Source of the DNA: a virus
Length of the DNA: 64,000 nt
Strand: one strand, 5' to 3'
IMG/VR virus record: IMGVR_UViG_3300021963_009993
Coordinates: 32,001-96,000 of that record
The notes under the pieces are model-generated. The model did not search any database. It was not told the DNA's origin and saw nothing but the letters and a program-made list of their open reading frames with translations. Both the position numbers and the translations under genes were made by a program. Positions 10,656 to 46,388 of the stretch are shown piece after piece (positions within the stretch are counted from its first letter, which is position 1; every line of letters begins with the position of its first letter).

Positions 10656-12332
10656 TTACGATAGGGAGTTTTCAAGTTCTTGTTTATAGTTTATCTTGGC
10701 AGCCGCTTGTTGGAATGTATCATCGCCATATATTTTACCTTTTTGTAGAAGGTATCTAAGCATTTCTGGGTGGTTTTTTTCTACAGCAAAATCTAATGCA
10801 TGATCACTTATGGGTGCATGTTTTACATCTACCAAGTATTTTACCATATCGTAATCTCCATTGTATACTGCATTTTCAACTGCTCCAGAATCTATGGGGG
10901 CTTTTTTTTCATCAATTAAATATTTAACAAGTTCTAAGTTTCTAGAAATTGCTGCAAAATTAACTGCGCCACCTGGTATTTTTATTTTTTTTATTTCGAT
11001 TAAATATTTTACAAGATCTATATCGCCTGATTGTATTGCGTGTACCAGAGTATCATCTCCAATTTTAGCACCTTTATCGATCAAATATTTTATGATTTCT
11101 AGGTTGTTAGTATAAAGTGCTGCATTTTGAACTGCGTTTCCAATCTCGGCACCTTTATCGATCAAATATTTTATGATTTCGGAATTATTATCAACTTGTA
11201 CAGCGTCTTCAACTGCGTTTGGTATTTGTGCTAATTTATCTTTTTGTTGATCGTTTAGTAAATCCCATTCTTTTTTGTTTATATTAAAATCGTTTTGTAA
11301 AGCAATTAATCTATTGTGAATATAGTTATTTTTTAAATCTTTATTGGTAGAAATTTTATCAATTTGGTAATCATTTAGTTGTAATCCGGTTTTGACATAT
11401 TGTTCTAACGAGCTATTAAACTTATTGTGCCAAAGAAAATTAAATTGCTGGTCTGTGAGTTTGTGTCCTCTACCTATATAGTTGGATTTTTCTTGTGGGG
11501 ACAAAGAAGTGAACCAGTTTAAGTCTTGATTGGTAGTTCCGAGTTTTTTATCTTCATCAAGTTCTTCTTGTGTTTTTGGCAAATTCTTGAATATATTTGT
11601 ATTTATTCCTTTAGATTTTAGGTAGTCCATGTAAATTTGTGGATCTTTATCTCTTTGGCTTGGATTATCTGGGTTTTGTATTTTGCCTGTTGTATTAATT
11701 CTATCGGTAAGTTCTAGACCGTTTATTGAAGCATCAACAACTACTATTGATAGATTGTCTTGTCGAGAATCATCATAAACAAAATAGAATGTACTGCCTT
11801 TGGTATCTCTGTAGGATTTCCACATGGTATTTCCGGGTTGGGAAATGCAGAAGGATTGACCTTTGCCGAGAATGATGCATTGGTTTGGGGAGTTAGACTG
11901 GTAGACTTTGATTAGTCCATCTGGGCTTGTGGCTATTGGTTTTTCATTTTGGAAATCGATATCTGATGGTTTGAATTTTTTAGCTTGTTTAGCTTTTTCT
12001 TCTCCTTGGTGTCCGTCAATGATTTGAGTCCAATTGAGGTATTTATCGAAAGGTGCGTCTGGTTTTTTGGTAGTTAGATTTACCTTAATCAGAGGCATTT
12101 TATTATTTTTAGTTAGTTGGATATAATTTTGAATATATTCTTTTGTTTGGTTGATGTTTTTGGATTGGGACAAGTAATAAGCAGCCAAGAGTATTAAAGG
12201 GTCGGATTCTTTTTGGTTTTGTGGGATGACCCTATTAAGTTCGTTGTAATTCTCTTGGTTGCCAGCTAGTTCTAGTGCTAGGGTTTTTTCTTCTTTAGAT
12301 TCTGTGATGATAAACCATTCTTTGAAGTTCAT
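10656..12332 (-). CDS. Tagged putative internal-head protein with C-terminal ankyrin-like repeats
   Basis: Starts MNFKEWFIITE; repeated NLEIIKYLIDKGA / DIDLVKYLIE / NLELVKYLIDE units. Confidence 0.75.
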   Translation of the reverse strand: MNFKEWFIITESKEEKTLALELAGNQENYNELNRVIPQNQKESDPLILLAAYYLSQSKNINQTKEYIQNYIQLTKNNKMPLIKVNLTTKKPDAPFDKYLNWTQIIDGHQGEEKAKQAKKFKPSDIDFQNEKPIATSPDGLIKVYQSNSPNQCIILGKGQSFCISQPGNTMWKSYRDTKGSTFYFVYDDSRQDNLSIVVVDASINGLELTDRINTTGKIQNPDNPSQRDKDPQIYMDYLKSKGINTNIFKNLPKTQEELDEDKKLGTTNQDLNWFTSLSPQEKSNYIGRGHKLTDQQFNFLWHNKFNSSLEQYVKTGLQLNDYQIDKISTNKDLKNNYIHNRLIALQNDFNINKKEWDLLNDQQKDKLAQIPNAVEDAVQVDNNSEIIKYLIDKGAEIGNAVQNAALYTNNLEIIKYLIDKGAKIGDDTLVHAIQSGDIDLVKYLIEIKKIKIPGGAVNFAAISRNLELVKYLIDEKKAPIDSGAVENAVYNGDYDMVKYLVDVKHAPISDHALDFAVEKNHPEMLRYLLQKGKIYGDDTFQQAAAKINYKQELENSLS

Positions 12333-12338
12333 AATGAA

Positions 12339-12346
12339 TATTTATG
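12339..12346 (-). promoter_or_regulatory. T4-late-type promoter CATAAATA, 6 nt before the ATG
   Basis: CATAAATA-ttcatt-ATG on -; identical context at 14394-14401. Confidence 0.55.
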
Positions 12347-12353
12347 TATTATT

Positions 12354-12398
12354 TAAAAAAATCCGGCGGGGTAATTTTTTTATATGGGAGGGGTTTTA
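12354..12398 (-). repeat. Conserved 3' element copy 2 (terminator right arm missing)
   Basis: TAAAAAAATCCGGCGGGGTAATTTTTTT...ATGGGAGGGGTTTTA on +; overlaps the stop codon of 12396..13589. Confidence 0.85.
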
Positions 12399-13589: not shown

Positions 13590-13638
13590 GGATTTTATAT
13601 ATCATCAATTTTAATCAATTATTTTATAATAAGTAAAT

Positions 13639-13694
13639 AAAAGCTGGATTAAAAAAATCCTGCGGGGTAATTTTTTGGTGTGGGAGGGGTTTTA
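13639..13694 (-). repeat. Conserved 3' element copy 3 with imperfect terminator
   Basis: AAAAGCTGGATTAAAAAAATCCTGCGGGGTAATTTTTTGGTGTGGGAGGGGTTTTA on +; overlaps the stop codon of 13692..14387. Confidence 0.8.
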
Positions 13695-14387
13695 TTTGTA
13701 TATTAATTTCCCAATGGATTCCAAGTGTTTGATGGTTGAAGGTTGTTTTTGGTATACAAGAAATACGGTTGGGTATCTATCTTTATGATCATTTTTGTCC
13801 ATTTGTTGCAAATATGATAATTCTCTAACTTGTCTTTTTATCCATTTTTTATATTCTTCAGTATTTTCTGGTGGAGGTGGTGTGATATAAGGATCTAGTC
13901 TATCATTTTTTATATTATTTGAAATGATTTGATCGTTAATTTCTTGTGTAGTTTTATTAGTTTTGATCCAAGTTTCTATTGGTATGGCGATAACATCATG
14001 TCTATTTTTGAATATTGAGTTCCAAAGTCTATAGGCATTTGAGCTTGTGTCATCTTCATTTATGGAGGCGCATGGCATAACACCTTGTTTATTTTGTGTT
14101 GCTAGTTCTAATGCTATTTCGTATAGTGTGGTTCCTATTTTTTTGTTTCTTAGTTGTGGTTCTAGCCAAGCGTTATTGATGCAGGTTGGATTAATATCGG
14201 TTCTGAATTCAACATTTCCTAGTGGTTTTGGTTTTCCGTTTTCATATAGATCTGGTTGTTTTGTAGAATCGAAGAGGTTTATTGTTGTAATATCTTTTCC
14301 ATCCTCGTTTTTTTCTTTAGTTACGACGAACTGAAAGTTATCGAGTGTATCGTATTGTTGTTTAGACAGCCATTCTTTGAATTTCAT
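13692..14387 (-). CDS. Tagged GNAT-like acetyltransferase
   Basis: Starts MKFKEWLS; NAWLEPQLRNKKIGTTLYEIALE (motif A-like) and TSSNAYRLW. Confidence 0.65.
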   Translation of the reverse strand: MKFKEWLSKQQYDTLDNFQFVVTKEKNEDGKDITTINLFDSTKQPDLYENGKPKPLGNVEFRTDINPTCINNAWLEPQLRNKKIGTTLYEIALELATQNKQGVMPCASINEDDTSSNAYRLWNSIFKNRHDVIAIPIETWIKTNKTTQEINDQIISNNIKNDRLDPYITPPPPENTEEYKKWIKRQVRELSYLQQMDKNDHKDRYPTVFLVYQKQPSTIKHLESIGKLIYK

Positions 14388-14431: not shown

Positions 14432-15682
14432 TTATTCCTTTACTTCAATATCTACATCTTGAGGTACTATGGTATTGGCGAAATCTACATAAACTGATTT
14501 TTCGCTTGGGCTCTTTAGTTCTCTTCCGTCTGGGAATGTTACGGCATGGAATGTAGTTGGGAACTGGTAGAATAGATTTCCCAAGACACTTTCTTTGAGT
14601 ACGGATTTTTGGCGAACGCTTAAGGAGCTATTATCGGTAAATTTGATTAACAAATCGGCCCAGATGGAAGGGCCATCGACGGAAACATATTTTGGTATCA
14701 TATCGAAATCTGCGCCGTGTAGAGTTTTCTTTGCTTGGACAATTGGACCCAATTTGGAAACAATTCTGTGCATGAAAGCAATTTTGATTCCATTGAATAT
14801 TCTTTTAATTTCCTTTTTGGTTTCTTGTTCGGATTTTCCAACGATGTATTTGTACCATGTTTGTTTTTTGGCATCATCGGGATTTATTTTGCCATCTGAA
14901 AGAAGTTTATAATTATTGAGCCATAGATTGTATTTTTCTTCCGTGAATTTTTCTTCCAAGGAGGAGAGCATTTCTTCCAATTTTTGTGTAAGTTTTACAA
15001 GTGTATTTGCATCACCTATTCTATTTGCTTCGGCACTTGCTTGAACTTTTATTTCTTCCTTTTCTCTTGCTTTATCTTCTTTCTTTTGTGTTTTAATTTC
15101 TGTGTTAGCTTTATCTATTTTGGGTAATAATATTTTGAAGTCATGTATAGCTTTGTTGATGATATAGGCTGGTTTTCTTTCTTTTCCCATGCCCATAAAT
15201 GATTTCACATTTGTTTTAACGCCATTGATTTCGACTTCTCTTACGAGGTTTCCTGTTTGAATAAGTTTTTTAATATCTTCAAGTTTTTCTGGGTAGATAT
15301 AATCTGTTGCTTTTGTTGTGTTCAATAGATTGACTGCTTTTTCTATTTCATCGAAAAGTTTTTGATTTTCCGTATCCCCTTCTGGTGGTTTTGGCATTAT
15401 ATTTTTCCAAGTGCCGTATGGTAAAAATTTTATATCGTATGGAGAAGTGCTATTGAGGTTTATAAAATCCTGCATTTTCAAATCGCCAAGTTTGTTTCTT
15501 GCTACTCTTATTGCGCTGGCTGCTTTTTGAGCCCATCTTTTAGTTGGATTCATTTTATCGAAGCTTGATTCGATATAATCCAAATCTGCCAACAAGTCAG
15601 TCATATCATTTTTGAGTTGATTGACATCAGATTTTTCGGAATTTTCTTCGTTTACAAGAAGCCAATTTTTAAAATTTAGCAT
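14432..15682 (-). CDS. Tagged protein, paralog of 22492..23952
   Basis: Starts MLNFKNWLLVNE; C-terminal FYQFPTTFHAVTFPDGRELKSPSEKSVYVDFA. Confidence 0.75.
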   Translation of the reverse strand: MLNFKNWLLVNEENSEKSDVNQLKNDMTDLLADLDYIESSFDKMNPTKRWAQKAASAIRVARNKLGDLKMQDFINLNSTSPYDIKFLPYGTWKNIMPKPPEGDTENQKLFDEIEKAVNLLNTTKATDYIYPEKLEDIKKLIQTGNLVREVEINGVKTNVKSFMGMGKERKPAYIINKAIHDFKILLPKIDKANTEIKTQKKEDKAREKEEIKVQASAEANRIGDANTLVKLTQKLEEMLSSLEEKFTEEKYNLWLNNYKLLSDGKINPDDAKKQTWYKYIVGKSEQETKKEIKRIFNGIKIAFMHRIVSKLGPIVQAKKTLHGADFDMIPKYVSVDGPSIWADLLIKFTDNSSLSVRQKSVLKESVLGNLFYQFPTTFHAVTFPDGRELKSPSEKSVYVDFANTIVPQDVDIEVKE

Positions 15683-15750: not shown

Positions 15751-17154
15751 TTATTTATATTGGATCATATCATTCAATACTGATGTCAATTCTTGGGTTT
15801 GTTCTGGTGTCAATTGGATGAGTGGTTTATCGTTGATTGTGATGGTATTTCCTTTGAGTTTAACGGTTTCAGATCCGTTGGTTAATTGTTTATTGACATT
15901 GAAGTATTTTGCGGTAACTTCTCTTGCTTTTTTTCTCCAATCAATTCTTGGTGGTGCTGTGCCGAAGATAGGAGTTTCTGTTGATTCAGATTTAATTCCT
16001 GTCAATTGTTGCATTTGTTGAGGATTAAGAGTTAATGTATAGTCGCCTCTTGATCCGTGGAATTTTAATTGTCTTCCTACTAAATCTAAGTTTATTTTGC
16101 CTAGGACATAAGATTTGATTTGTTTTGGTTGCTGGCTAGCGTCACCGACAAGCAAACAGTAATCACCGCCTTTTGTCTGTACGCAGAATTTGTCGCCTGA
16201 ATTGAGCGGGGTTTTGTTGTTTGGTGTTAGTTGTTTACCATTGAGTGTAAATGTGTTTCTTTTTGTTTTGACAACTGCATACCATTGTTTTTCATCGAGG
16301 TATGTGAAGGTGATGGGTGGATCGTTTTTATCGATGATTGCTGATCTTAGTTCTCCGGGCCATTTTAATGTTATTGAATCATGAACAAATCTTGTTGGTG
16401 ATAGTTTGAAAGTTCTTGGTTCGTTTGCAAAATTGATTGGGTTCATAACTAGCGGAGGTGCTTTAATCACCTTATCAGATATATCTCTGCCTGAAATCTT
16501 GGCTTGGTAAAGGCTTTTGACGCTGGTTCCTTTCATGGTATTTTTCCATTCAAGGTTATTGATTGTAGATGGATCAAGATTAATGTTATCACTTTCCGCA
16601 TAACCAAGGAATTTTACACCATCTTCGACTGGGGGGTATTTAAGGATACAAAGCCCGAATCTTGGTCCTGATAGACCCATGTCCATGTAGATGGCACCTT
16701 TTAAATTTTTCTCACACCAGTTTTTATAATTTCCTAAAAAACTGTCGTTCATATTTTTATCGTAATCATTTAGTTTTTCTTGCCAATCCGGTCCGGCTTC
16801 TTTTTTCCAACTCTCTAGAACCTTGAGTTTTTTGAGTTGGCTGCTGACTAGGTAATCTGGGCCGTGCATTTTCATCGCTTCATTTTTTGAGAGGACAAGG
16901 AAGTTTTCTAGTCCTGATATTTTCCATTTTGTAATATATCTGCCATAGTCTTCTGCATGTGAAGTGAATTGCGACTCTAGGTTTACCATAGTGTATAGAC
17001 CGCATCCGAGGGCGCATCCACCGGATTTACCTGCTTCAAATATTTGCGATATGAGAGATGATACGGTTCCTAGGTCTGTAGTTCTGTGGTAAACGACAGC
17101 GGTGTTGTTTTGCAGATATAGTTCTTCAGTAAGTAGCCATTGTGAAAAGTTCAT
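15751..17154 (-). CDS. Tagged protein: ART-like N-terminal domain plus FHA-like domain
   Basis: Starts MNFSQWLLTE; VVYHRT...LGCGLYT...YGRYITKWKI; FHA-like TFTLNGKQLTPNNKTPLNSGDKFCV. Confidence 0.5.
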   Translation of the reverse strand: MNFSQWLLTEELYLQNNTAVVYHRTTDLGTVSSLISQIFEAGKSGGCALGCGLYTMVNLESQFTSHAEDYGRYITKWKISGLENFLVLSKNEAMKMHGPDYLVSSQLKKLKVLESWKKEAGPDWQEKLNDYDKNMNDSFLGNYKNWCEKNLKGAIYMDMGLSGPRFGLCILKYPPVEDGVKFLGYAESDNINLDPSTINNLEWKNTMKGTSVKSLYQAKISGRDISDKVIKAPPLVMNPINFANEPRTFKLSPTRFVHDSITLKWPGELRSAIIDKNDPPITFTYLDEKQWYAVVKTKRNTFTLNGKQLTPNNKTPLNSGDKFCVQTKGGDYCLLVGDASQQPKQIKSYVLGKINLDLVGRQLKFHGSRGDYTLTLNPQQMQQLTGIKSESTETPIFGTAPPRIDWRKKAREVTAKYFNVNKQLTNGSETVKLKGNTITINDKPLIQLTPEQTQELTSVLNDMIQYK

Positions 17155-17297: not shown

Positions 17298-17693
17298 TTA
17301 AATCTTTCTGGCGATTATACCTTTGGATGTGATTATTTTTTCTGTAGTTTTTTGTGGGTTTGTTATTGGGTATCCCCATTTACCTTTATTTGATATATTG
17401 TATGGGGAATCTTTATCAACGAGGTGTTTGTCTTGATCTTTTTTGAATTCATTTTCATTGTTGTAGAATTTTGGTTTATTGAAAGTGGCGTAGCCAACTA
17501 GTGTTGCTGGGCCTTTTCCGGTTCGTATGATACCAACTTTTTTGTTTACATATGGGTTGAGTGATGGTGTATCTCTGGTTTCGATGGTTTTTTCACCTGC
17601 CATTATTTGTTTGGTGAATGGTTGGTGTTTATCGTTTATATTGATGCCGATTTTGGGTTGGTCGTTTTCTTTTAGCCATAGTTTAAAGTTCAT
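17298..17693 (-). CDS. Tagged ASCH-domain protein
   Basis: Starts MNFKLWLKE; QPFTKQIMAGEKTIETR is the ASCH signature. Confidence 0.8.
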   Translation of the reverse strand: MNFKLWLKENDQPKIGININDKHQPFTKQIMAGEKTIETRDTPSLNPYVNKKVGIIRTGKGPATLVGYATFNKPKFYNNENEFKKDQDKHLVDKDSPYNISNKGKWGYPITNPQKTTEKIITSKGIIARKI

Positions 17694-17713: not shown

Positions 17714-17881
17714 ATGAAAACATTTATGGAATGGTTGAATGAGTACAATGCGCCTAGGGCTGGGATGAAGTCTCGTTGGTCTGTTAAGTACAAGAAGTCT
17801 ATTAATTGCAGTAATCCCAAGGGATTCAGTCAGAAGAATTATTGCAAGCGCAAGAAGCGTGGTGGTGGTTATCGTTCTTGA
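17714..17881 (+). CDS. Tagged 55-aa basic mini-protein (not in ORF track)
   Basis: MKTFMEWLNEYNAPRAGMKSRWSVKYKKSINCSNPKGFSQKNYCKRKKRGGGYRS. Confidence 0.75.
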   Translation: MKTFMEWLNEYNAPRAGMKSRWSVKYKKSINCSNPKGFSQKNYCKRKKRGGGYRS

Positions 17882-19234: not shown

Positions 19235-19966
19235 ATGAATTTTAAATCTTGGTTTTTGAATGAAGAGAGTGGTGGCAAGGAGTATTGGGGTCCATTCAGT
19301 TATGTCACAAGGGAAGGTGATTATCTTAGGGTGACGGCAGATTTGTTGGACAAACCGCTTTACATACCTGTTAATGGCGGTGTCACATATGTTGAAAAGT
19401 ATCCTTTAGATAAGCGTTTGAATCCACCTTGGAACAAGTATTTTCGTTATTCTGTTTCCGGTGATGGCAGGTATGTTGTCAATTATGTCGAGAACAGGGC
19501 TGTTGATTGTGTTTGTTATTCGCCAAAGTATGATGCTATTTATTTGATAAACCGCAAAGCATCTCCTGTTGGTTTGGCTATTCCCGGCGGTTTTTTTGAT
19601 ACGCATGACGGAATTGATTCAAACAATCCAACTGATCCAGAATCTATTGGAAGAAAAGCAGCTGCCAGAGAGTTGCAAGAAGAGACTGGGGCGAAAATAA
19701 ATCCCGGTGAGCTTTCTTATATTGGTCGTTTTAGGACGGGTGATTCTGACAGCAGGGAAAAGAACTTCTATGTGTGGGCTTACTTCTACAGGGTGCCAGA
19801 TGAAAGTATTCGTTCTTTCAAGTTTGGTGATGATGCTGGTCAGGCACCGGGTAGTCCTTCTTTGCAGCGTGATGGTTTGAAGGGTTGGTACAAGTTGGAT
19901 GAGATTCCAAGTCTGGCATTTCCCCATCACATGGACATCATAAAACAAGCTACCCATCTTGTGTAA
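19235..19966 (+). CDS. Tagged Nudix hydrolase
   Basis: Starts MNFKSWFLNEE; LAIPGGFFD...AAARELQEETG; LAFPHH; TATAAATA at 19210-19217. Confidence 0.85.
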   Translation: MNFKSWFLNEESGGKEYWGPFSYVTREGDYLRVTADLLDKPLYIPVNGGVTYVEKYPLDKRLNPPWNKYFRYSVSGDGRYVVNYVENRAVDCVCYSPKYDAIYLINRKASPVGLAIPGGFFDTHDGIDSNNPTDPESIGRKAAARELQEETGAKINPGELSYIGRFRTGDSDSREKNFYVWAYFYRVPDESIRSFKFGDDAGQAPGSPSLQRDGLKGWYKLDEIPSLAFPHHMDIIKQATHLV

Positions 19967-20702: not shown

Positions 20703-21476
20703 ATGGGTATCAAGACTGAGATTGCGTGGACTGAAAGCACCATCAACTTTTGGTGGGGTTGCTGCAAAGTTTCCGAGGGTTGCAAGCATTGCTATGCCGA
20801 AAAGGACAATGATCGTTATCAATTGGCAGAGTGGGGACCAGACACTTTGCGTACATGGATTAAGACCTGTTATGCGAATGCCAGCAGAGCCAACAAGATT
20901 GGTAGGGAGAGTGGCATCAAGAGAAGGGTCTTTACCTTGTCTATGGGTGATTTCTTTGAAACTCATGCTGTTTTGGATGAGTATCGTGCTAGGGCTTGGA
21001 AGCACATCAAATCTTTGACTCATATCAATTGGCTAGTGTTGACCAAGCGTCCAGAGAACATTGCTTCGATGTTGCCAAAGGATTTCCATAATGGTGACTA
21101 CAAGCATGTTCATTTGGGCACTACTTGTGAGCATGAGAAGTATGTTGATCGTTTGGATTATCTTCGTGATATTCCTGAGTGGGGAGGAATCCGTTGGGTA
21201 AGTTACGAGCCTGCTCTGAGTCCTATTGATCATGTTGTTGATTTGACCAAGATTGATTGGTTGATTTATGGTGGGGAGAGTAGTCGTAGTTATCTTGGGT
21301 TCCGCAAGGACAATGATGAGTGGGCTAGGAGGATCAAGGTTTTGTGTGAGAAGGAGGGTACTGTTTTCTTTTACAAACAAAATAGTGGTTTGAAAAGGAA
21401 GCTACTCAAGAAGTTGGATGGTGTTCAGCATTACAATTTCCCAGACTTTGACAAGAATCATCTGGAAGTTGTTTAG
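20703..21476 (+). CDS. Phage Gp37/Gp68 (DUF5131-type) radical-SAM-like protein
   Basis: TEIAWTESTINFWWGCCKVSEGCKHCYAE; FTLSMGDFF; LTKRPEN; SYEPAL; IYGGES; FFYKQ. Confidence 0.85.
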   Translation: MGIKTEIAWTESTINFWWGCCKVSEGCKHCYAEKDNDRYQLAEWGPDTLRTWIKTCYANASRANKIGRESGIKRRVFTLSMGDFFETHAVLDEYRARAWKHIKSLTHINWLVLTKRPENIASMLPKDFHNGDYKHVHLGTTCEHEKYVDRLDYLRDIPEWGGIRWVSYEPALSPIDHVVDLTKIDWLIYGGESSRSYLGFRKDNDEWARRIKVLCEKEGTVFFYKQNSGLKRKLLKKLDGVQHYNFPDFDKNHLEVV

Positions 21477-21937
21477 TATCCTTCTTCAACTTCTATGATT
21501 TCGGCTGCGTTGGTCAGGTATTCCCATACGCTTTCATTAGGGTGTGGGATGCCTGACCAATAGTTATTTGCTGCTTCGATTACTTCCATGCTATTTTCAT
21601 CATGGCCCGATGACAGAAGACTTTCTATTTCTGAATTCCAATTGACATCATGTCTTTCTACTTTCCCCAACGGTTTTAGTTTGAATATCCAATCTGTAAC
21701 GGCACCTGCCAATTCTAGATCATCTGTGTTATCTGTCATGAATACTGCATCTTTGTGAGATATCATGTTCTTTGGTCTATATTTTTCCAGTATTTTGTAC
21801 CAAGGATTAAATCCCCAATCTTTTTCGTATTGTTCAGTCCTACCTTTCAATATTGTTCCTACTGGTATTTCTTTTGAACTACCATGAAAGAAAATACGGG
21901 ATTCAATGCTTTCCAAGAACTGTTTGAATGTTTTCAT
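21473..21937 (-). CDS. Tagged Arr-like ADP-ribosyltransferase fold
   Basis: Starts MKTFKQFLE; FFHGSS...GTILKG...AVFMTD...IFKLKPLGKVERHD. Confidence 0.55.
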   Translation of the reverse strand: MKTFKQFLESIESRIFFHGSSKEIPVGTILKGRTEQYEKDWGFNPWYKILEKYRPKNMISHKDAVFMTDNTDDLELAGAVTDWIFKLKPLGKVERHDVNWNSEIESLLSSGHDENSMEVIEAANNYWSGIPHPNESVWEYLTNAAEIIEVEEGY

Positions 21938-21940: not shown

Positions 21941-22489
21941 TTAGATTGTTCGTATTCCCTTGTTAGTCAATTCAAATTTCATATTTATTTTGAATGGTTG
22001 TACTTGGTTTTCACCTAATTTGTGTACTTGCATGCCTTTGGTATCGAGCATTTTTTGCAGGTTTCCACCCTTGCTGAATTTGCCTACTGCTGCCATGACA
22101 TCCCTTGTGACCATTTGTTTTGCCTGTTGTTCATTTTCGGCATTTACTATTGCATTTACTTCTACAACCAAAGCGGTTTGACCTTGTTCTTTTGATTCTA
22201 TTATTTCGATGTTGAATTCTGAGTAGTATGCTTTTGATTGTGCGTGGTGTTTGATTGTTTCCTTGAGTGAATTAATAGATCTGATGTTAATTTCATCGGC
22301 TTGGATATTTTGATGAATGGCTGGTTTTTCGTTATAGCTTTGTGATTGCACCATGTATTGTTGTAGGTTGTTGTTTTTTGCTTGTGCAGCACTAGCCATG
22401 CCTAAACCAGCTGCCAGACCCAAGGCACCTGTTTTCAATAGGTTTTCATCATATTGTTCTTGATTTTCTAGCCAGTTTTTGAATTGCAT
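21941..22489 (-). CDS. Tagged hypothetical protein
   Basis: Starts MQFKNWLE; then a hydrophobic GALGLAAGLGMASAAQA segment. Confidence 0.7.
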   Translation of the reverse strand: MQFKNWLENQEQYDENLLKTGALGLAAGLGMASAAQAKNNNLQQYMVQSQSYNEKPAIHQNIQADEINIRSINSLKETIKHHAQSKAYYSEFNIEIIESKEQGQTALVVEVNAIVNAENEQQAKQMVTRDVMAAVGKFSKGGNLQKMLDTKGMQVHKLGENQVQPFKINMKFELTNKGIRTI

Positions 22490-22491: not shown

Positions 22492-23952
22492 TTATCCTAA
22501 GTCATTTACTTCTGTTTCTTCATCTTTTTCTATTTCAGGTGGTTTATCGAGTCCAGCGAATGCTAGGTAAACGGACATTGCCGATGGGTGTTTGAGTGAT
22601 TCACCATTTGGCAATATTACATTGTGGAATGTGGTTGGGAATCTATAGAATCGTTTTCCACCACCTGAGCTAAACATGGCACCTCTTCTTGCACCACTTA
22701 TGGCTGCGACCATTTTGTGAACTACGCTGAAGGATGAGCCGTCAGCGAATTGGATTTTCAATCTAGCTTCTAGTGATCCATAATTTGCGCTTGAATAAAT
22801 CAATTTGATATTGGCTTGTTTGCCTGTCGTTGCAGCTTTCTTGGCAACTATTGGTGCCAATTTTCCTGTGATGCGACTGAAGAATATTTGTGATACATTT
22901 CTCCATGATTGTTCTGCCACCTTTTCAAGCTTATCCTCTGGTGGTCTTGTAAATGCATCATCTTTGGTAACAACTAATTGTGCGCCTAGTGGATATCTTG
23001 CTCTCAAATCCCTCTTCATCTTGATGGCAGGTTCTGAATAATCTCTTGGTTTTGGTGAACTGGCGATGAACTTGTCTATTTGTTCATTTGCCACTATCAA
23101 GAAATTTTTCTTGTATTCATCTTTTTGATTTGACAATAGAACATCGATTTCCTTTCCAAGTTCTTCTACAGCCTTAAAAGATATAACGGGAGTTTCTGCT
23201 CTTACTTTTTCTGCTGCGACTTCCTTGGCTTTTACTTTTTCTTTTTGAGCTTCTTCTTTCTTTTCTCTCTTGATATCTGCATCTTTTTTAGCTTTGCTTT
23301 GGATGTTTTCCTTGATGAAATCGGATAGTGTCTTCCATAAATTACCAGCATCTTCCATCCAATCTGCTATGCTTACTACCTTGCCAGATTTGAGTTGAAC
23401 ATTCATGAGTGCTTCTGTATTTGGATAGTTTTCTGCTTTTTCGCCTTCTATTGGCTTCATGAATGGGAAGTCATTTGCGTATTTGGCATACTTCTTCAAA
23501 TTTTTAGCTATTTTTTCAGAATTGGGTGATACTCCTTGAGCCCATAAAAATTGAATAAATGCATCTTTGTATTTGTTCCAATTTTCAAATTTGTCTGTGC
23601 CTAAAGCTTTGTAGAAAGGATTTGGTTTTCCATCTACTTCTGGGTTATTTTGGTTATCAAGTCCACGATATCCTCCACCGGACTGAAGGGGCAATGGAAC
23701 AAGATTGTGTACTGTTACTGCTCTGTATATATTTGTTGCGAAATCGGGATGGACTTTGAATTTTTCTTTTGCAGCATTTAATTCTGAATTAGGGACAACA
23801 TCCTTGTTTTTCAATTCCATCAATTCTTTCATTCCCATATCGATTTCTGCTGAACTTTTTTCATCAAGGTATGCTTTCACTTTGTTTACGGCATTGGCCA
23901 GATCTGATTCTGTTGTTGCCTCTGTGATAATTAGCCAGTCTGAAAAGTTCAT
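22492..23952 (-). CDS. Tagged protein, paralog of 14432..15682
   Basis: Starts MNFSDWLIITE; C-terminal FYRFPTTFHNVILPNGESLKHPSAMSVYLAFA. Confidence 0.75.
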   Translation of the reverse strand: MNFSDWLIITEATTESDLANAVNKVKAYLDEKSSAEIDMGMKELMELKNKDVVPNSELNAAKEKFKVHPDFATNIYRAVTVHNLVPLPLQSGGGYRGLDNQNNPEVDGKPNPFYKALGTDKFENWNKYKDAFIQFLWAQGVSPNSEKIAKNLKKYAKYANDFPFMKPIEGEKAENYPNTEALMNVQLKSGKVVSIADWMEDAGNLWKTLSDFIKENIQSKAKKDADIKREKKEEAQKEKVKAKEVAAEKVRAETPVISFKAVEELGKEIDVLLSNQKDEYKKNFLIVANEQIDKFIASSPKPRDYSEPAIKMKRDLRARYPLGAQLVVTKDDAFTRPPEDKLEKVAEQSWRNVSQIFFSRITGKLAPIVAKKAATTGKQANIKLIYSSANYGSLEARLKIQFADGSSFSVVHKMVAAISGARRGAMFSSGGGKRFYRFPTTFHNVILPNGESLKHPSAMSVYLAFAGLDKPPEIEKDEETEVNDLG

Positions 23953-23990: not shown

Positions 23991-24773
23991 ATGAAAAGTT
24001 TTATGAATTGGCTTAGAGAGAGTTATGCTCCTAGAAACCTTAATTGGTTGCTTGTTAGAAATTACTTGAAGAATGCTGAAAAGAATTTTGATGTTTTGGA
24101 CAGTTGGGAGCAGTTCAAGAACTGGGATGAATCCGAGGAGATAGCCAACAATCTTTCTTTGGATTTGGAAGATGAAGACAAACTTTATGACAATGCTGCA
24201 AAAATAAACAAGTACATGATGGATAATCCAGAATTACTGGATAATTTTTTATATCAATATTTGGATAGTGAAGAATCGCCTGCTTATTTGAATATGAATT
24301 ACATTAGAGATTTACCGCCAAACACATGGTTGGTTCATTTTTCAGACAAGGCTGGCAATATTGCCGACGATGGTTTCAAGCATGGTGTCTCAGATGTTAG
24401 GAAAATGCATTACACTAGGGGAGAAACCTACAGCAGTAGGACATCTGATTCTGGTTACAATTTTGCTTTTTTGGCTAATTCAAAAGAGGCAGCTTCAGCA
24501 GCCAAGGATTCCAAGTATGGTTCTGATGCGGTTATGTTCATGAGTGCTGGTGTTTTGACCTATCATGCTGGTGATAACGAGAATCAAGTTGTGTTTGATG
24601 GAACTAATGTAAAGCCAAAAGACATAGTGTATTTGGAAAGAACTGCGTATGACTGGGTTGTCAAGTCAAAGGATTCAAATAAAAGAGATCCATATATAAA
24701 CAACGATTTCGGGGAAGTTGTTAAATGGGTCATGAACAACTGGCAGCAGTATAGAAAAATAATAATGGGATAA
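23991..24773 (+). CDS. Tagged protein, possible ART-like fold
   Basis: Likely start MKSFMNWLRE at 23991; WLVHFS...IADDGF...GYNFAF...GDNENQVVF. Confidence 0.45.
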   Translation: MKSFMNWLRESYAPRNLNWLLVRNYLKNAEKNFDVLDSWEQFKNWDESEEIANNLSLDLEDEDKLYDNAAKINKYMMDNPELLDNFLYQYLDSEESPAYLNMNYIRDLPPNTWLVHFSDKAGNIADDGFKHGVSDVRKMHYTRGETYSSRTSDSGYNFAFLANSKEAASAAKDSKYGSDAVMFMSAGVLTYHAGDNENQVVFDGTNVKPKDIVYLERTAYDWVVKSKDSNKRDPYINNDFGEVVKWVMNNWQQYRKIIMG

Positions 24774-24774: not shown

Positions 24775-25122
24775 ATGCAATTCAAAAAGTGGCTAATAGA
24801 ATCCAGATTTAATGACATGCATTCGTGGTTGGATGTTAGTGGGGAATTTCATCCGGTTACTGCAACTACCCATTCTGATGACGCAGTAAAGTATTCTGAT
24901 TATACTAATAGTGCTGAAGCCAAAGATGATCTGATGAAAAGGGGTTGGCAAAGGGTTAGTCACTACAATCATATTCTTTATGTTGCGAATCCTATTGTTG
25001 CTCCCAACAGGGTTCAGAAGAGTGAGCTTGTTGATTTGGCTTTGACTAGGGATTTGCGTAAAGTTGTGTATGACAATGATGTGAGTGAAATTGTTTTGTG
25101 GGATGCTTCTGAAAAATTTTAA
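24775..25122 (+). CDS. Tagged hypothetical protein
   Basis: Starts MQFKKWLIE; SWLDVSGEFH...H...LMKRGWQRV. Confidence 0.7.
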   Translation: MQFKKWLIESRFNDMHSWLDVSGEFHPVTATTHSDDAVKYSDYTNSAEAKDDLMKRGWQRVSHYNHILYVANPIVAPNRVQKSELVDLALTRDLRKVVYDNDVSEIVLWDASEKF

Positions 25123-34697: not shown

Positions 34698-34919
34698 ATG
34701 ATTCAGCTAAATCCTCCTATTCCATTAGAGACACCGAAGGGAAGTGGTTTTGCTCACTTCTTGATTGATTATTCCCAAGAACATCATCTGGCATGGGTAG
34801 TTTTTATCAATGAAACTGGGGAGTGTTGGACATTCCAAAACCCAGAAATAAGAATGAGTCCTAACAGAACATTGAATCGTTATTCTGTTTCACCATTCAA
34901 AAATTTAGATGCCAAATAA
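34698..34919 (+). CDS. Small phage hypothetical protein
   Basis: MIQLNPPIPLETPKG...IDYSQEH...WVVF...TGECWT. Confidence 0.7.
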   Translation: MIQLNPPIPLETPKGSGFAHFLIDYSQEHHLAWVVFINETGECWTFQNPEIRMSPNRTLNRYSVSPFKNLDAK

Positions 34920-35144
34920 TTTGTCTATATTCCATTTCATACTTTTTCCAAATCCATCATGAAGTGAAAATACAACTTGTTTATTTGTAATGGTATTTTT
35001 TATGATTAATTCTTTGTCAGTTGTCTTCATTCCATACTCGAACTGTTTGATACCATTTTCTTTTAAATATTTTTCAATATTCTCTTCTAAATTTGACATA
35101 AGTACATTTTCTTGAAAGTCTAACCAATCAACAAATTTTTTCAT
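34905..35144 (-). CDS. Tagged small protein
   Basis: Starts MKKFVDWLDFQE. Confidence 0.65.
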   Translation of the reverse strand: MKKFVDWLDFQENVLMSNLEENIEKYLKENGIKQFEYGMKTTDKELIIKNTITNKQVVFSLHDGFGKSMKWNIDKLFGI

Positions 35145-35403: not shown

Positions 35404-35697
35404 TTAAACCTTTTCAAAAATATAAGTTGTTCCTTGATCGTTTATTGAAATCCATAATATTTCTTTATTGTTTTCATTCATAGATTTGCCAGCAGACATT
35501 TCAGAAATGCCAGCAAATTGATGTTTGAAATTTTCAGGAACAATTTTCAATGCGTATTTCAAATCCAACAGATCACTATTTTCCTTAAGGTCTGGTATGT
35601 TTTCTGTGTCGTAGGTTCCAACAAATTCATAACCACTTGTATTTTCTATACCTTGGGCTGTGTTTCTGAAGCTCATCCATTCATTAAATTTTTGCAT
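35404..35697 (-). CDS. Tagged small protein
   Basis: Likely start MQKFNEWMSF at 35697 after GAGGTG RBS. Confidence 0.6.
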   Translation of the reverse strand: MQKFNEWMSFRNTAQGIENTSGYEFVGTYDTENIPDLKENSDLLDLKYALKIVPENFKHQFAGISEMSAGKSMNENNKEILWISINDQGTTYIFEKV

Positions 35698-36151: not shown

Positions 36152-36700
36152 ATGATCTCATTTTCACAGTTTTTGAAAGAATACGGTTTCACAGACATGG
36201 TTCAATTCATGTCGCAAGAAGATGTTTCTTTACCTGAAATATTTGATGAATTGAAATTATCCAAGAGTGATCTGCCTAAAGTCGTTCAGACTGGTGCTGA
36301 TTATGCAGCTGCTTTTGATAAGTTTGTTGGCATCAAAAAGACAATATTTCTTCTTGCACCAACTTTAAAAACTAAGATTAGTTTGTTGAATGATCTTTAT
36401 CTTCTGTCAAGACATCCTAAGAAAATAAAGAATTACAAAGCGGTTTTGGAAGATATTATTGAACTTAGCAAGTTATTGGCGATGAATCCATTGGCAGCAA
36501 CAAGCATTGCAGCTTCCGCAGCTATGATGATAGGTACAAAAAATCCAGAGGCATATGCTGTGGCAACAAAACTATTGAGTTCAGCTTATTTCTATGCTGA
36601 AACAATATTAAAAGCCTTGCAAAATAGCAAATCAGAAAAGATTGCCGAATTAGCAATGAAGGCAAAGATATTATTGCCAAAATCAGAAATCAAGCATTAA
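36152..36700 (+). CDS. Tagged helical hypothetical protein
   Basis: Starts MISFSQFLKE. Confidence 0.7.
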   Translation: MISFSQFLKEYGFTDMVQFMSQEDVSLPEIFDELKLSKSDLPKVVQTGADYAAAFDKFVGIKKTIFLLAPTLKTKISLLNDLYLLSRHPKKIKNYKAVLEDIIELSKLLAMNPLAATSIAASAAMMIGTKNPEAYAVATKLLSSAYFYAETILKALQNSKSEKIAELAMKAKILLPKSEIKH

Positions 36701-37302
36701 TTTTTAGGAAACATTTCTGGGATTTTTTGTTTAATCAAATTCTCGTTTTTTGTGTACCAGTCAATAAATTCCTTTTCCGCTCTTTCTGGGCCAGCTTCAC
36801 CTAATTTTGCATTTGGATCTTTTAATTGTTGAAATTCTTTTTCATGAGTTGCTTCATGAACTATTGTGCTGGCTATTTGAACTATAGTCCATGTCTTATC
36901 ACCAAGCTCTCTGACAAATCTTGGAACATTAACCTGAATGGTTACTGAAGGTATTAGTTCAGCTAGATTGATGTTGGGGAATTTGTCCTTGATTACAGCG
37001 TTTGGCAATGTGTCAATTGAGTGCTGGTCAAATTTAGCTTGATTGAAAATTAACTTGGCTTTCGGGCCAACTACTTTTCTGTTTTGTGAAGAAGAATATA
37101 AACCATATGCTACAGGACCACCTGACAGAGGGACGATAGTGTTGATGTCTCTAAGTAAATCCTTGCCAGTCATCTTGTCATAAAGTTGCACAAGTTTAAC
37201 TGCAAGTCCCACTTTACTGTATGCTGGTGTAACTTTGCTGAAATCAACTTCTTCTGTTCCAACTGTGTTTACTTCACTCAACCATTTTTTAAAAGTTTTC
37301 AT
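36697..37302 (-). CDS. Tagged HExxH zinc-metallopeptidase-like protein
   Basis: Likely start MKTFKKWLSE at 37302; ASTIVHEATHE...EAGPERAE. Confidence 0.65.
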   Translation of the reverse strand: MKTFKKWLSEVNTVGTEEVDFSKVTPAYSKVGLAVKLVQLYDKMTGKDLLRDINTIVPLSGGPVAYGLYSSSQNRKVVGPKAKLIFNQAKFDQHSIDTLPNAVIKDKFPNINLAELIPSVTIQVNVPRFVRELGDKTWTIVQIASTIVHEATHEKEFQQLKDPNAKLGEAGPERAEKEFIDWYTKNENLIKQKIPEMFPKN

Positions 37303-38645: not shown

Positions 38646-39209
38646 ATGGAAGATGATTTGCTAATTGGTTATTACGAATCACAAGAAGGTTCAAGGCCGA
38701 TGAATTTGATAACTGAAAATGTGCAACTTTCTGAGAATTTGCAATATCATTTAGAAAATAATATATCATTATCTAACTCAGTATTTAGACTAGGTTCTGA
38801 AGCTTGGATGGATTTGGTTAATGAAATGAGAGATTTGTGGGAACAGGGATTGTTGCATGTCAATGAGAACGATGAATTCATTCTTATGACAGAAGCTGGC
38901 AGAACTGGTATTTATCAAGGCAAATCAGTTGCCTTGGATTCTCCCAAGAGGGCTAGTGGTGGCAACAAGAAGTTTACTGTTTATGTTAATAGTGGTCGCA
39001 AGAACAAAGAAGGCAGAGTGATAGCCAAGAAGATTGGTTTTGGTGATCCAAATCTGACTGTAAAGAACAAAGACCCAAAAAGAGCCAAGAGTTTTAGAGC
39101 AAGACACAAATGTCATTTAAAGAATGACAAGACAACTCCCGGTTACTGGGCTTGCAGAACAGGTCGTTATGCCAAGCAATTAGGACTTTCATCTTCTGCG
39201 AGTTGGTGA
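38646..39209 (+). CDS. Phage protein with basic C-terminal domain
   Basis: KKFTVYV...KKIGFGDPN...KSFRARHKC...GYWAC; I recognise this motif from T4-like phage hypotheticals. Confidence 0.7.
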   Translation: MEDDLLIGYYESQEGSRPMNLITENVQLSENLQYHLENNISLSNSVFRLGSEAWMDLVNEMRDLWEQGLLHVNENDEFILMTEAGRTGIYQGKSVALDSPKRASGGNKKFTVYVNSGRKNKEGRVIAKKIGFGDPNLTVKNKDPKRAKSFRARHKCHLKNDKTTPGYWACRTGRYAKQLGLSSSASW

Positions 39210-39934
39210 TGAAAAGTTTTTATCAATATCTTTTAGAAGTATCTGCAACTGATACTGTTGGCTTTTTATGTGATAAATTTTTGAAAAACATAAGAAGAAC
39301 CTATGATGATGAGCAAAGGTATTTGCCTATGTTTGCTCTTGCAGATTACATGGAAGAAAACCTTTTAAATGAATATAAGGCAAACCAAATTAGAGAAATG
39401 GCAAGTAGCAAGGATCTTTATAATCTTAAAAATGCCTGTAATAAATATTTGCAAGATGGTTTTTTCACAACTAATACAGCATACGATCCAAACATTTCAT
39501 CTTATCGTCCACAACTTTTAGTTCTTTCAAACAATTATCCTTTGCATAGAGTAACGGATAACATCGATGAGCGTGGGATTGTGGTTTCAATCGCTTCTTT
39601 AACGAATATAAGACAAGCAATAATAAGTGAAGCAGTCAAAAGACAGATGGGTATCAATCAGTATATTAGAACCATTTATGACACAGATCAACCAATAAAT
39701 AATTTGGTTGATCTTAATAATACTGATTTGGAATTCTATTACAGGGATTTCTACAGACCAAGGACTTTGACAAACTTAGTCAACAAGGATGGTGAAATGG
39801 CTGCTGGTAGTAGTGAGATAAATGAACGAATTACAGATAGGTTTATGGAAGAGGAATTGCCAGATATTGTTGGCGAAGAAGTGGCTAAGATGAACTATCT
39901 TATACTTAAAGATTTGGAGTATTATAATGCTTGA
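39209..39934 (+). CDS. Tagged hypothetical protein
   Basis: Starts MKSFYQYLLE; TGATG overlap with the previous stop. Confidence 0.7.
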   Translation: MKSFYQYLLEVSATDTVGFLCDKFLKNIRRTYDDEQRYLPMFALADYMEENLLNEYKANQIREMASSKDLYNLKNACNKYLQDGFFTTNTAYDPNISSYRPQLLVLSNNYPLHRVTDNIDERGIVVSIASLTNIRQAIISEAVKRQMGINQYIRTIYDTDQPINNLVDLNNTDLEFYYRDFYRPRTLTNLVNKDGEMAAGSSEINERITDRFMEEELPDIVGEEVAKMNYLILKDLEYYNA

Positions 39935-44030: not shown

Positions 44031-44087
44031 GAAATTATTTATTCATAAAACAGTAAATACTAACAAGGAAACAACTAAATTATTTAT

Positions 44088-44519
44088 ATGAATGACATAG
44101 AGAAAATACCTGCGGTTCCTCCCATGAATATTAATGTTGCTTCTGCGAAAAGCGAAGCATCATCAACAGTAACAGATGAGGATTTACAAAATATATTTCT
44201 TGAAATACTCGGTGATTTAAGAAACGACAGAAGAGAAGTAGATGGTTTATTGAGTAACTTTACCGAAATGGTAATGAATGAAGGGGATAGTTCATCAGCT
44301 TCAAAAGAAGCAGTTGTAAATCTTGTGAAAGTAAAAACAGACATAGCTGACAAGAAGACAAAAGTTGCTGATTTGATGCTTGCCTTGAGAATGAAGGAAA
44401 AATCCATATCGAAGATTCAGGCTAATCAAACCAACCACATACATATTACAGATAAAAGAGCTATCCTTGATGCCATAAATAAAACAACAAAGAAGGTGCC
44501 AAATGAGCAAGTGGAATAA
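44088..44519 (+). CDS. Hypothetical protein, loosely like a T4 gp16-type small terminase
   Basis: Helical core (EAVVNLVK...KVADLML) then NQTNHIHITD.RAIL tail; the similarity is impressionistic. Confidence 0.3.
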   Translation: MNDIEKIPAVPPMNINVASAKSEASSTVTDEDLQNIFLEILGDLRNDRREVDGLLSNFTEMVMNEGDSSSASKEAVVNLVKVKTDIADKKTKVADLMLALRMKEKSISKIQANQTNHIHITDKRAILDAINKTTKKVPNEQVE

Positions 44520-45837
44520 TTTAAATGACTGGTTGATAAATGAGGAAGATGTATTGGCATCAGCTTTAGACCCACTAGCTGGTGGCCCACCATCTGGCGC
44601 ACAACCTCCGGGGTTGCCGGGTGCTGGTGCAATAAGTCCTCCACCCGGAGCAGATGCAACAGTAAATCCTAATCCACTTGAAGCTCCAGTTCCACAAGAT
44701 GGCTCTGGACAACAAGTTGCAGCTGGTGAAATACAAGTCTCTCCACCTGATTCTCCAGATATGCCTGAAGAACAAAAGTCTCAGACATTTGATGATTGGA
44801 GAGCTAAGTTTTTCAAGGAATCAATAAAGTCTGATGTTAATCAGCTAATCGAGATGATTAGCAAGATAAGAAATAATGATTTGGATACTTATCCAAGAAA
44901 ATTTGTCGAAGATAATCTTCAGATCTTATTCTTAAGGCAGAATGCCAACATCGACAAGGCATCACAAGAAATCAGAAAGTCAATCAAAGACCAACTTGAT
45001 CAAAACAATCCATCAACAAGCTTGGTTCAATATATGGTCAATAGCTTACAGAACACTCCTGACTTGTCGAATGTTTTCATAAAGCTTATAGGTCTTTATG
45101 GAAGCAAAGGCGATGCACATAGAAAGTATGTTGCTTCATTGCTTGGTGCAGTACAAGTTGGTAGTGGTGGTCAGAACGAAGATCTGATTTTCAATCAAAG
45201 AGAATACTCAATAAAAATATCAACAAGAATAAACTCAAAGTTTGGAATGGTTGACTTGGGTAGATGGTCAATGAGCATCGATGACCCAGAGAAGTTTCTT
45301 TCCGATCCAGAAATAGAAAGACTTGAAGATGGAAGTCCTGAAGAAAAGGATGTTCTAAGAAAAAGAGTTATGCTTGAGAGCATGGCCGATATTTTCCGCA
45401 TGAGGGCTTTTTTCATCAATGTCATCGGAAATGATGGAACTGTATATTTTGTCGGCTTGGATTTAAGTAACGGGTTAAAAGAAGGATATTCAAATGGCAA
45501 ATTAATTGTAAAGACTATGGTGAATGATAATTCTGAAGCCCTTTACAATGATCAAGGTGAGTTGACTGAACTTGTAGATATTAAAGTCATGTACCAGAAG
45601 GAAACTGGCAAATTAGATGAGAATGGAAATCCACAATACAAGGAAATAGAGTTTATTGCAAAAAAAGAAGGAATGTTATTTTTGACAGCCAACCTAGAAA
45701 CACTCAAAGAAGCTGCTTCTGCTTTCCAAGGTTTAGTTGTCAAGGAAATACCCTACAACGGAAATCCAAGTGACATACCATCTTTGATGAGATGTGTGCC
45801 AAGTATGCCTGAAACATTATTAAGAAACTGTCTTTAA
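44503..45837 (+). CDS. Hypothetical protein with divergent tag and Pro/Gly-rich linker
   Basis: MSKWNNLNDWLINEE; GGPPSGAQPPGLPGAGAISPPPG. Confidence 0.7.
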   Translation: MSKWNNLNDWLINEEDVLASALDPLAGGPPSGAQPPGLPGAGAISPPPGADATVNPNPLEAPVPQDGSGQQVAAGEIQVSPPDSPDMPEEQKSQTFDDWRAKFFKESIKSDVNQLIEMISKIRNNDLDTYPRKFVEDNLQILFLRQNANIDKASQEIRKSIKDQLDQNNPSTSLVQYMVNSLQNTPDLSNVFIKLIGLYGSKGDAHRKYVASLLGAVQVGSGGQNEDLIFNQREYSIKISTRINSKFGMVDLGRWSMSIDDPEKFLSDPEIERLEDGSPEEKDVLRKRVMLESMADIFRMRAFFINVIGNDGTVYFVGLDLSNGLKEGYSNGKLIVKTMVNDNSEALYNDQGELTELVDIKVMYQKETGKLDENGNPQYKEIEFIAKKEGMLFLTANLETLKEAASAFQGLVVKEIPYNGNPSDIPSLMRCVPSMPETLLRNCL

Positions 45838-45848
45838 GGATTAAAAAT

Positions 45849-46388
45849 ATGAGAACATTTCTTGAATTTTTCCATAATCATAATACAGAAGACACCTGCG
45901 AGAAACTAGTACTTTTAAAGAAGGTTTTAGAAAAAGGTGGTCTTCAGGTACATGATGGAACACATGATCATCTCAATCCTTTTTTGTTTGTGAAAGCATG
46001 GCCAAAACCAAATAGCTTTGAAGGAATAAGATTTTATATGAATGGAGACATACTTTCATTCAGAGTTCAAAAGTATCAAGAAACACAACCATATGGCCAA
46101 GCTTACCATATGGATGTTCAAAAGATGTTTGAAGATAATATTCTGAATAAGAAGGATGAAAAGGAAGCTTTGGCAGAGACATTCAAAGCAATAGACCAAA
46201 AAGTCAGAAAATTCTTCAGAGACAGCAAGAAAGCTGAAGATGAAATAGTTAAAACACAAATAACAAGTATGGATATTGAAGACAAGACAGATGATGGAAG
46301 GCTTAATAGAAAACCAGATGATGCACCTTTGATTGTGAATCCTTATGGTGGCGATTATTCAAATAAAGTTTATAGCAAAGGAAATTAA
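45849..46388 (+). CDS. Hypothetical protein with tag-like N-terminus
   Basis: Starts MRTFLEFFH. Confidence 0.65.
   Translation: MRTFLEFFHNHNTEDTCEKLVLLKKVLEKGGLQVHDGTHDHLNPFLFVKAWPKPNSFEGIRFYMNGDILSFRVQKYQETQPYGQAYHMDVQKMFEDNILNKKDEKEALAETFKAIDQKVRKFFRDSKKAEDEIVKTQITSMDIEDKTDDGRLNRKPDDAPLIVNPYGGDYSNKVYSKGN

Follow-up and report, generated by a model that had tools for sequence, protein, structure and literature searches.

A shared N-terminal tag on proteins with different bodies

The window analysed here is a 64,000-nucleotide (nt) stretch of phage DNA that spans positions 32001-96000 of a 181,260-bp IMG/VR contig (IMGVR_UViG_3300021963_009993; 36% guanine plus cytosine (GC)). Because CheckV rates this contig as 38% complete, the whole phage genome would be around half a megabase in size. 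The major capsid protein, which is of the same type as T4 gp23, finds its closest record, at 77% identity, in the uncultured phage LR756511.1 (595 kb), whereas those of the cultured jumbo and T4-like phages XacN1, Flavobacterium immuto and the cyanomyoviruses are only 30-35% identical. Between 10.6 and 46.4 kb of the window, 22 open reading frames (ORFs) that encode proteins with different bodies begin with variants of one short sequence, referred to below as the tag, and each N-terminus quoted for them in the original prediction is present in the sequence at the place given. These ORFs are listed here with window coordinates, strand, length in amino acids (aa) and opening residues.

10656..12332, minus strand: 558 aa, MNFKEWFIITE; ankyrin repeats, with a paralogue at contig 2161-4350
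12396..13589, minus strand: 397 aa, MQSFKQWLLNE; no family found
13692..14387, minus strand: 231 aa, MKFKEWLS; a lead to a GNAT-like protein
14432..15682, minus strand: 416 aa, MLNFKNWLLVNE; C-terminal 119 aa related to the 22492-23952 ORF
15751..17154, minus strand: 467 aa, MNFSQWLLTE; TATAAATA stops 6 nt 5' of the ATG
17298..17693, minus strand: 131 aa, MNFKLWLKE
17714..17881, plus strand: short ORF of 55 aa, MKTFMEWLNE; 20-nt TATATATA spacer to the divergent start at 17693; may be a remnant
19235..19966, plus strand: 243 aa, MNFKSWFLNE; Nudix domain at residues 87-191
21473..21937, minus strand: 154 aa, MKTFKQFLE; possible ADP-ribosyltransferase-type fold, leaders of homologues different or absent
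21941..22489, minus strand: 182 aa, MQFKNWLE
22492..23952, minus strand: 486 aa, MNFSDWLIITE; C-terminal piece in common with the 14432 ORF
23991..24773, plus strand: 260 aa, MKSFMNWLRE
24775..25122, plus strand: 115 aa, MQFKKWLIE
25619..26101, plus strand: 160 aa, MRFIDFME; read from the second ATG
26088..26729, plus strand: 213 aa, MIDFKTWLE; a lead to a protein-kinase-like protein
27021..27206, minus strand: 61 aa, MLDFKQWFQ
34905..35144, minus strand: 79 aa, MKKFVDWLDFQE
35404..35697, minus strand: 97 aa, MQKFNEWM; internal ATG with its own Shine-Dalgarno sequence
36152..36700, plus strand: 182 aa, MISFSQFLKE
36697..37302, minus strand: 201 aa, MKTFKKWLSE; internal ATG, at which the alignment with the LR756511 orthologue begins
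39209..39934, plus strand: 241 aa, MKSFYQYLLE
45849..46388, plus strand: 179 aa, MRTFLEFF; the LR756511 orthologue begins MLEFKEFIDKKE

All 22 open with M-x(1-3)-F-x-x-[W/F/Y]-[L/M/F/I], mostly followed by Glu, and the consensus runs from Met through one to three residues, Phe, two residues, Trp/Phe/Tyr, Leu/Met/Phe and up to three further residues to Glu. The tag stands at the first ATG of the ORF in 19 cases and at an internal ATG in three (25619, 35697(-) and 37302(-)), each of which has its own Shine-Dalgarno sequence or TATA-like element. Across the contig, 22 ORFs have the strict core F..W[LFMI] no more than four residues from Met, where 0.09 would be expected from its internal frequency (5 per 52,302 positions), and a looser core occurs in 34 where 1.6 would be expected, numbers which exclude chance as the source of the tags. 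Scores from a reduced-alphabet profile are bimodal among the contig ORFs, with 35 at 9.8 or above and the next best at 5.9, and two of 798 internal Met positions score 8 or more, both of them re-called as true starts. Taken together, the core counts, the bimodal profile and the internal-Met control establish that the tag is real and strictly N-terminal.

The tag extends beyond 10.6-46.4 kb over the whole 181-kb contig, where it is carried by 35 of approximately 235 ORFs (15%, or about one gene in seven) with lengths of 55-729 aa; looser variants also exist on the contig and lie outside the 35 counted. Sixteen tagged ORFs, on both strands as had been claimed, are held by a low-GC island at 10.6-27.2 kb. 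GC content is 42-49% in the helicase/VWA region (window 1-10000) and then 28-37% in the tag island and in the cluster at 28.3-34.6 kb, and this drop over window 10000-46000 suggests an accessory, fast-turnover region. Among annotated ORFs the tag is not found on those for the helicase, VWA protein, Hsp20, SpeD, ClpP and CCA-type nucleotidyltransferase, nor on those for the portal, protease, capsid, tail and fibre, and it is likewise missing from the 28.3-34.6 kb cluster, which was earlier called a glycan cluster and whose ORFs are unannotated. These results bear out the statement of the original prediction that the Hsp20, SpeD, ClpP, glycan-cluster and tail genes lack the tag, the recognisable replication, metabolic and structural genes of the contig all being untagged. 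The unusual scale that it also proposed holds for this contig (15%), with fewer tags in relatives (3-4% of ORFs): the figure is 33-47 of 1075 ORFs in LR756511, and below 2% in T4. The tag density on this fragment is unusual even among relatives, and may be diluted by the missing 60% of the genome.

After the first 14 residues are trimmed, BLAST leaves two related pairs among the 35 tagged ORFs, namely the two ankyrin proteins and, through their common C-terminal piece, the 14432 and 22492 ORFs. The conserved Leu of the tag is spelled by six codons and the Phe by both of its codons, the Trp being fixed; the first 12 codons of tagged genes have a median DNA identity of 15 in 36 bases, and identity in the upstream DNA is at background. 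Because synonymous codons vary at conserved residues and DNA identity is low, selection acts on the protein. The tag is also retained as a protein sequence in a relative whose GC content is 42%. Two repeats were found at the DNA level.

12315..12362, minus strand: promoter-like element plus first six codons, identical at 46 of 48 positions to 14370-14417
10589..10652, minus strand: 3' intergenic element, with further copies at 12334-12397 and 13630-13693

The first of these, with its partner, is the only clear DNA-level cassette copy. The second (45-64 nt, copies 75-84% identical, G/C-rich at the core and with a run of T on the coding strand) lies behind three consecutive minus-strand tagged genes. 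Together the 3' element and the 46/48-nt promoter-plus-tag repeat look like cassette-style gene organisation. A DNA cassette as the general cause of tag conservation was considered and rejected, since synonymous codons are free and there is one DNA-level pair only.

Leader types across phage lineages

The protein encoded at 21473-21937 has 102 metagenomic homologues with a conserved body that starts at YHGS. This body is preceded by an FxxWL leader (type A), by a leader that reads M-[K/R]-x-x-[E/D]-[I/L/F] (type B, scored as M[KR]x.[ED][ILF]; examples are MRATEF, MRLYEL and MKISEI), or by nothing (MRFFHGS). In 41 IMG/VR loci that contain such a homologue, unrelated neighbours share the local leader type: the 540 neighbouring ORFs include 54 with type B, against about 2.6 expected by chance, and 10 with type A. 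The single FxxWL locus among them has type A on two of its 25 neighbours and type B on none, and the present contig has 36 of type A and none of type B. The contrast in type between the contig and the loci gives a Fisher P of ~1e-18, with the proviso that several loci are near-duplicates and so not all are independent. S77 proteases are also encoded in two large type-B genomes, and a complete 374-kb genome carries type B on 15 of its 531 ORFs (2.8%) and essentially no FxxWL tags.

The Nudix protein (19235-19966) retains its tag in all 17 of 17 homologues at 50-72% identity, with a linker of variable length before a conserved YWGP. AlphaFold models of this protein and of the 21473-21937 protein, based on the alignments of these homologues, place the tag as a lone helix at residues 3-12 ahead of the body, and give the first ten residues a confidence score (predicted local distance difference test, pLDDT) of 52 and 61, respectively, with bodies at 95 or above. 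On this comparative evidence, the tag is a module that can be separated from the body and goes with the phage, not with the cargo. Homologues in LR756511 exist for 5 of 35 tagged and 59 of 182 untagged ORFs (P 0.04), a low conservation which mirrors the behaviour of the ip loci of T-even phages; where orthologues of tagged ORFs are present there, they keep a tag. No close relatives of the 15751-17154 protein were found in IMG/VR, the 21473-21937 protein had no match in cultured phages, and a nucleotide search of the tag island against GenBank phages gave no match. A dense array of type B leaders was also seen elsewhere, at a 31-kb locus of another phage lineage (IMGVR_UViG_3300025781_000038), where 10 of 23 ORFs begin with MRLxDL, MRAxEF, MKIDEI or the like, a density equal to that of the present array.

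Resemblance to the T4 capsid-targeting sequence

The N-termini of the T4 internal proteins (IPs) offer the closest comparison. In the T4 record IPII and IPIII open with MKTYQEFIAE, the leader that the original prediction gives for them, and IPI opens with MKTFKEF. Every T4-genome ATG with at least 50 codons downstream (1326 sites) was ranked by the profile of this phage's tags, and IPI came 2nd, IPIII 7th and IPII 20th (P ~3e-6 for all three within the top 20). In the account of IPIII leader mutagenesis given in PMC9026906 (citing Mullaney and Black 1996), targeting depends on residues 4 and 7 and processing on residues 8 and 10. The conserved Phe, Trp/Phe/Tyr, Leu and Glu of the tag map onto residues 4, 7, 8 and 10 of this capsid-targeting sequence (CTS), with the invariant F and W/F/Y aligned with Y4 and F7 of IPIII. 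The T-even internal proteins have only their leader in common, and are injected inhibitors of the GmrSD restriction enzyme (PMC12373910; PMC3012670).

Within the first 13 residues, 29 of 35 tagged ORFs have a hydrophobic-x-Glu motif, compared with 41 of the 182 untagged ones (odds ratio 16.6, P 2e-11). The head module of the contig follows T4 order, with a portal, a 597-aa protein without assigned function, the prohead protease, a 301-aa protein and the capsid protein. The protease is of the T4-type S77 family (100.8 bits to PF03420; E 1e-42 to phrog_207). It is position in this module alone that would place the scaffolding core protein of the phage; the 597-aa protein has a looser tag variant, MKKKFIDFNTFKALE, and was left out of the tag count. 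The capsid protein begins MNANARFLNE (MSANAKFLNE in LR756511). The protease ORF remains open for 49 codons 5' of its first ATG (contig 129409-129556, outside the window), and a GTG at contig 129421 with a TAGGAG ribosome site is likely to be the protease start (gene at contig 129421-130092), in which case the added N-terminus holds LNLNE. The FLNE ending of the capsid protein and the LNLNE of the protease recur in tags as WLNE, WLLNE and WFLNE, which fits a putative Glu-specific processing site common to tags, capsid protein and protease.

Expression signals

Of the tagged ORFs, 20 of 35 have an element resembling TATAAATA or TATATATA (the TATA-like element) no more than 45 nt upstream, compared with 25 of 182 untagged ORFs (P 1.6e-7). 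In 13 tagged ORFs it stops 2-6 nt before the ATG and there is no Shine-Dalgarno sequence (window 17155-17170 and 12333-12356 are examples); ordinary Shine-Dalgarno sites are present in 17 of the 35. Over the whole contig, 29 of the 104 copies of ATAAATA stand in the sense orientation no more than 45 nt upstream of a start, where 3.1 would be expected, and this nine-fold enrichment includes a copy before the gene for a 2068-aa fibre. PHROGs searches with the untagged genes that follow ATAAATA gave no indication of whether these are late or structural. The match of ATAAATA to the T4 late-promoter core suggests late and partly leaderless expression. Divergent tagged pairs have starts 17-38 nt apart (window 17693/17714 and 23952/23991; contig 140401/140419), and the spacer in such pairs contains a single TATATATA-like palindrome and lacks a Shine-Dalgarno sequence. 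This arrangement suggests that the spacers may be bidirectional promoters giving leaderless mRNAs.

Identities of the tagged proteins and their untagged neighbours

Pfam identifies ankyrin repeats (10656-12332) and a Nudix domain (19235-19966) and, together with PHROGs, almost nothing else among the tagged ORFs, most of which have no family. The model of the 21473-21937 protein matches BC2332 (E 1e-5) and, more weakly, rifampin ADP-ribosyltransferase and cholera/pertussis-type A subunits, and so lends modest weight to an ADP-ribosyltransferase (ART)-type fold. Neighbours in the ESM Atlas give leads to a GNAT-like protein at 13692-14387 and to a phage-kinase-like protein at 26088-26729. Of the enzymatically varied cargo originally proposed, the ankyrin and Nudix proteins are thus supported by Pfam and the ART, GNAT and kinase types more weakly, but neither Pfam nor PHROGs supported an ASCH, ParB-like or metallopeptidase domain in any tagged ORF, the one match to a ParB C-terminal domain being on an untagged ORF outside the window. 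This repertoire resembles the polyvalent proteins and the head-packaged ARTs which, by the account in PMC9503650, Iyer et al. predict, the latter to be widespread. Three untagged genes of the window are relevant here.

17869-19170, minus strand: ART-PolyVal protein of 433 aa (PF18760 E 9e-17), within the tag island
41305-41838, minus strand: ClpP-family protease
41989-43440, minus strand: CCA-adding/poly(A)-polymerase-type nucleotidyltransferase, beside ClpP

No in-frame tag exists upstream of the ART-PolyVal ORF. Its N-terminus, MNELGEHLYN, was considered as an Alt-like leader and rejected, as it is part of the domain conserved in six metagenomic homologues. With ClpP and the S77 head protease, the phage has two proteases.

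Discussion

The explanation that we favour, and consider somewhat more probable than all others combined, is that the tag is a divergent leader for capsid targeting and cleavage. It would mark a very large and rapidly changing set of proteins packaged in the head, such that dozens of unrelated proteins are probably delivered with the phage DNA. Under this explanation the tagged genes would be expressed at the time of head building, many of them from their own T4-late-type TATAAATA-like element. The tag, a short amphipathic helix with two aromatic residues on one face, would bind the prohead scaffolding core so that the protein becomes enclosed, and the S77 prohead protease would then cut after the final Glu to free the mature protein within the head. 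In the next infection the proteins would exit with the DNA and act immediately on the host, with candidate activities that include the ADP-ribosyltransferase-fold, Nudix, acetyltransferase-like, kinase-like and ankyrin proteins and many orphans. Core binding, cleavage, packaging, injection and the effector roles are all steps that we infer.

Several observations weigh against this explanation. A tagged share of 15% of ORFs, with some proteins of up to 729 aa, far exceeds the number of cargo types in any characterised T4-like head, and the tagged proteins are not basic (median isoelectric point 6.6), unlike T4 IPII and IPIII. A hydrophobic-x-Glu motif is missing from the first 13 residues of 6 of the 35 tags, and its spacing varies. 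Two small T4 proteins that are not listed among the internal proteins have IP-like N-termini, gp61.1 (NC_000866 18966-19130; MKTFKEFIKE), which ranks first in the profile scan, and UvsW.1 (114210-114440; MLLEFKQFLYE). Neither is known to be packaged, so the motif by itself is no proof of packaging. The reading of the TATA-like element as a late promoter is our interpretation, and no gp55 homologue was found in the contig or in LR756511 with T4 gp55 as the query, although such a single-sequence search is not decisive. Finally, the one protein of the island that Pfam clearly identifies as ART-PolyVal (17869-19170) is untagged.

The tag might instead be a docking peptide for some other shared partner, such as a chaperone, an adaptor of the phage ClpP, a phage actin-like filament or a modifying enzyme with many substrates, in which case the tagged proteins would act within the producing cell. 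The similar N-termini of gp61.1 and UvsW.1 speak for this, as does the presence of ClpP on the contig. We nevertheless regard it as unlikely, because the conserved positions of the tag are the targeting and processing residues mapped in the T4 CTS, the T4 internal proteins come near the top of the profile cross-test, the tags share their Glu-motif ending with the capsid protein N-terminus, and no enzyme is seen to co-occur with the tags. A different possibility is that the tagged proteins do enter the prohead, but mostly as core or scaffold fillers or decoys which are degraded and expelled at maturation in the manner of T4 gp22, gp67 and gp68. T4 core proteins that enter by way of a propeptide are mostly degraded (PMC9026906), no enzyme domain can be recognised in the majority of the tagged ORFs, which are orphans, and the loosely tagged 597-aa ORF occupies the gp67/gp68 position. 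Such fillers would hardly be expected to have the well-folded ART-fold, Nudix, kinase-like and GNAT-like bodies conserved across phages that are found here, and domains of the ART, Nudix, kinase and GNAT types belong to classes predicted or known to be injected; this alternative also seems improbable to us.

Far less credible is a tag that acts as nucleic acid, either as a 5' coding element for leaderless late mRNAs or as a recombination cassette. The 13 genes that lack a Shine-Dalgarno sequence and have the end of a TATA-like element 2-6 nt from the ATG would suit the former, and the single 46/48-nt promoter-and-codon pair and the 3' element behind three genes would suit the latter. However, about half of the tagged genes (17/35) have an ordinary Shine-Dalgarno sequence, synonymous codons vary at conserved residues with the Trp fixed, the tag is kept as protein in the relative of 42% GC, and DNA-level identity is confined to one pair.

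If the tag works as it does in T4, the proteins that uncultured giant phages inject before any gene expression could be listed by a simple rule based on sequence. This class is the expected home of first-strike anti-defence and host-takeover factors, T4 Ip1-3 all being blockers of GmrSD, and the mostly family-less tagged proteins are ready candidates for function screens. It would also follow that a phage can devote a large share of its genome to injected cargo, that a diverging address label on exchanged cargo gives a handle on the co-evolution of head assembly and cargo, and that the tags could serve in protein-loading vectors built on phage heads. It is conceivable, if more speculative than the capsid-targeting role itself, that huge T4-like phages run an addressable delivery system at a scale not described before, in which dozens of proteins per genome, and perhaps around 100 in the present one, are routed to the head by a label of ten residues. 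Were this so, the forms of the label would be lineage-specific and co-evolve with the head-assembly machinery, cargo genes that cross lineages would be re-labelled, and the set of proteins that any uncultured T4-like jumbo phage injects could be read directly from its sequence. No description of such a system in huge phages was found in the open-access literature searched.

Comparison with known systems

The CTS of T4 IPI, IPII and IPIII and the T-even Ip families are the nearest known counterparts. There, as here, a leader of 9-12 residues is the sole common part of unrelated, fast-evolving proteins in phages with a T4-type S77 protease. Positions 4 and 7 are aromatic, and in most of the present tags an aliphatic residue at 8 and Glu at about 10 follow as in T4; the IPI start, MKTFKEF, is nearly identical to several of the tags. 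The present tags differ in their preference for Trp at position 7 and in the variable Met-Phe spacing and pre-Glu linker. The numbers also differ, with three IPs in T4 (and at least 10 Ip families across the T-even phages) against 35 tagged ORFs per 181 kb here, and the present cargo, which is known from sequence alone, reaches 729 aa, includes enzyme folds and is not basic. T4 Alt, a head-packaged and injected ADP-ribosyltransferase, has a possible parallel in the one tagged ORF with an ART-type fold, whose delivery is presumed; unlike it, Alt has a leader of another type (MELITELFDE), and the fold here is closest to BC2332 and Arr.

The polyvalent proteins (Iyer et al. 2017, as presented in PMC9503650) overlap with the present repertoire in the ART-PolyVal (here on an untagged protein), Nudix and, as a lead, Kinase-PolyVal domains, and both sets are predicted to be embedded in the virion and injected early. 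A polyvalent protein is one giant multidomain polypeptide, whereas the tagged proteins here come from separate ORFs of 55-729 aa, each with a tag of its own, and the domain types alone overlap. In phiKZ, 201phi2-1 and SPN3US, a protease related to gp21 processes dozens of head-internal proteins, which it cuts after Glu and which are ejected into the host; these phages belong to a different lineage (Chimalliviridae and relatives), and their propeptides are long and dissimilar, with no short common tag. PeSL-type mobile regulatory cassettes have reportedly been described in the hyperplastic regions of T4-type phages (by Arbiol et al. in 2010). They may resemble the tag island in their small accessory genes, low-GC island and repeated promoter and stem-loop-like intergenic elements, but the elements here have only two or three copies and the promoter is of a late-like rather than an early type. 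The kind of system proposed here is known from T4. Its novelty would lie in its scale, in cargo of enzyme type within a huge uncultured phage, and in leaders on shared cargo that are specific to the lineage.

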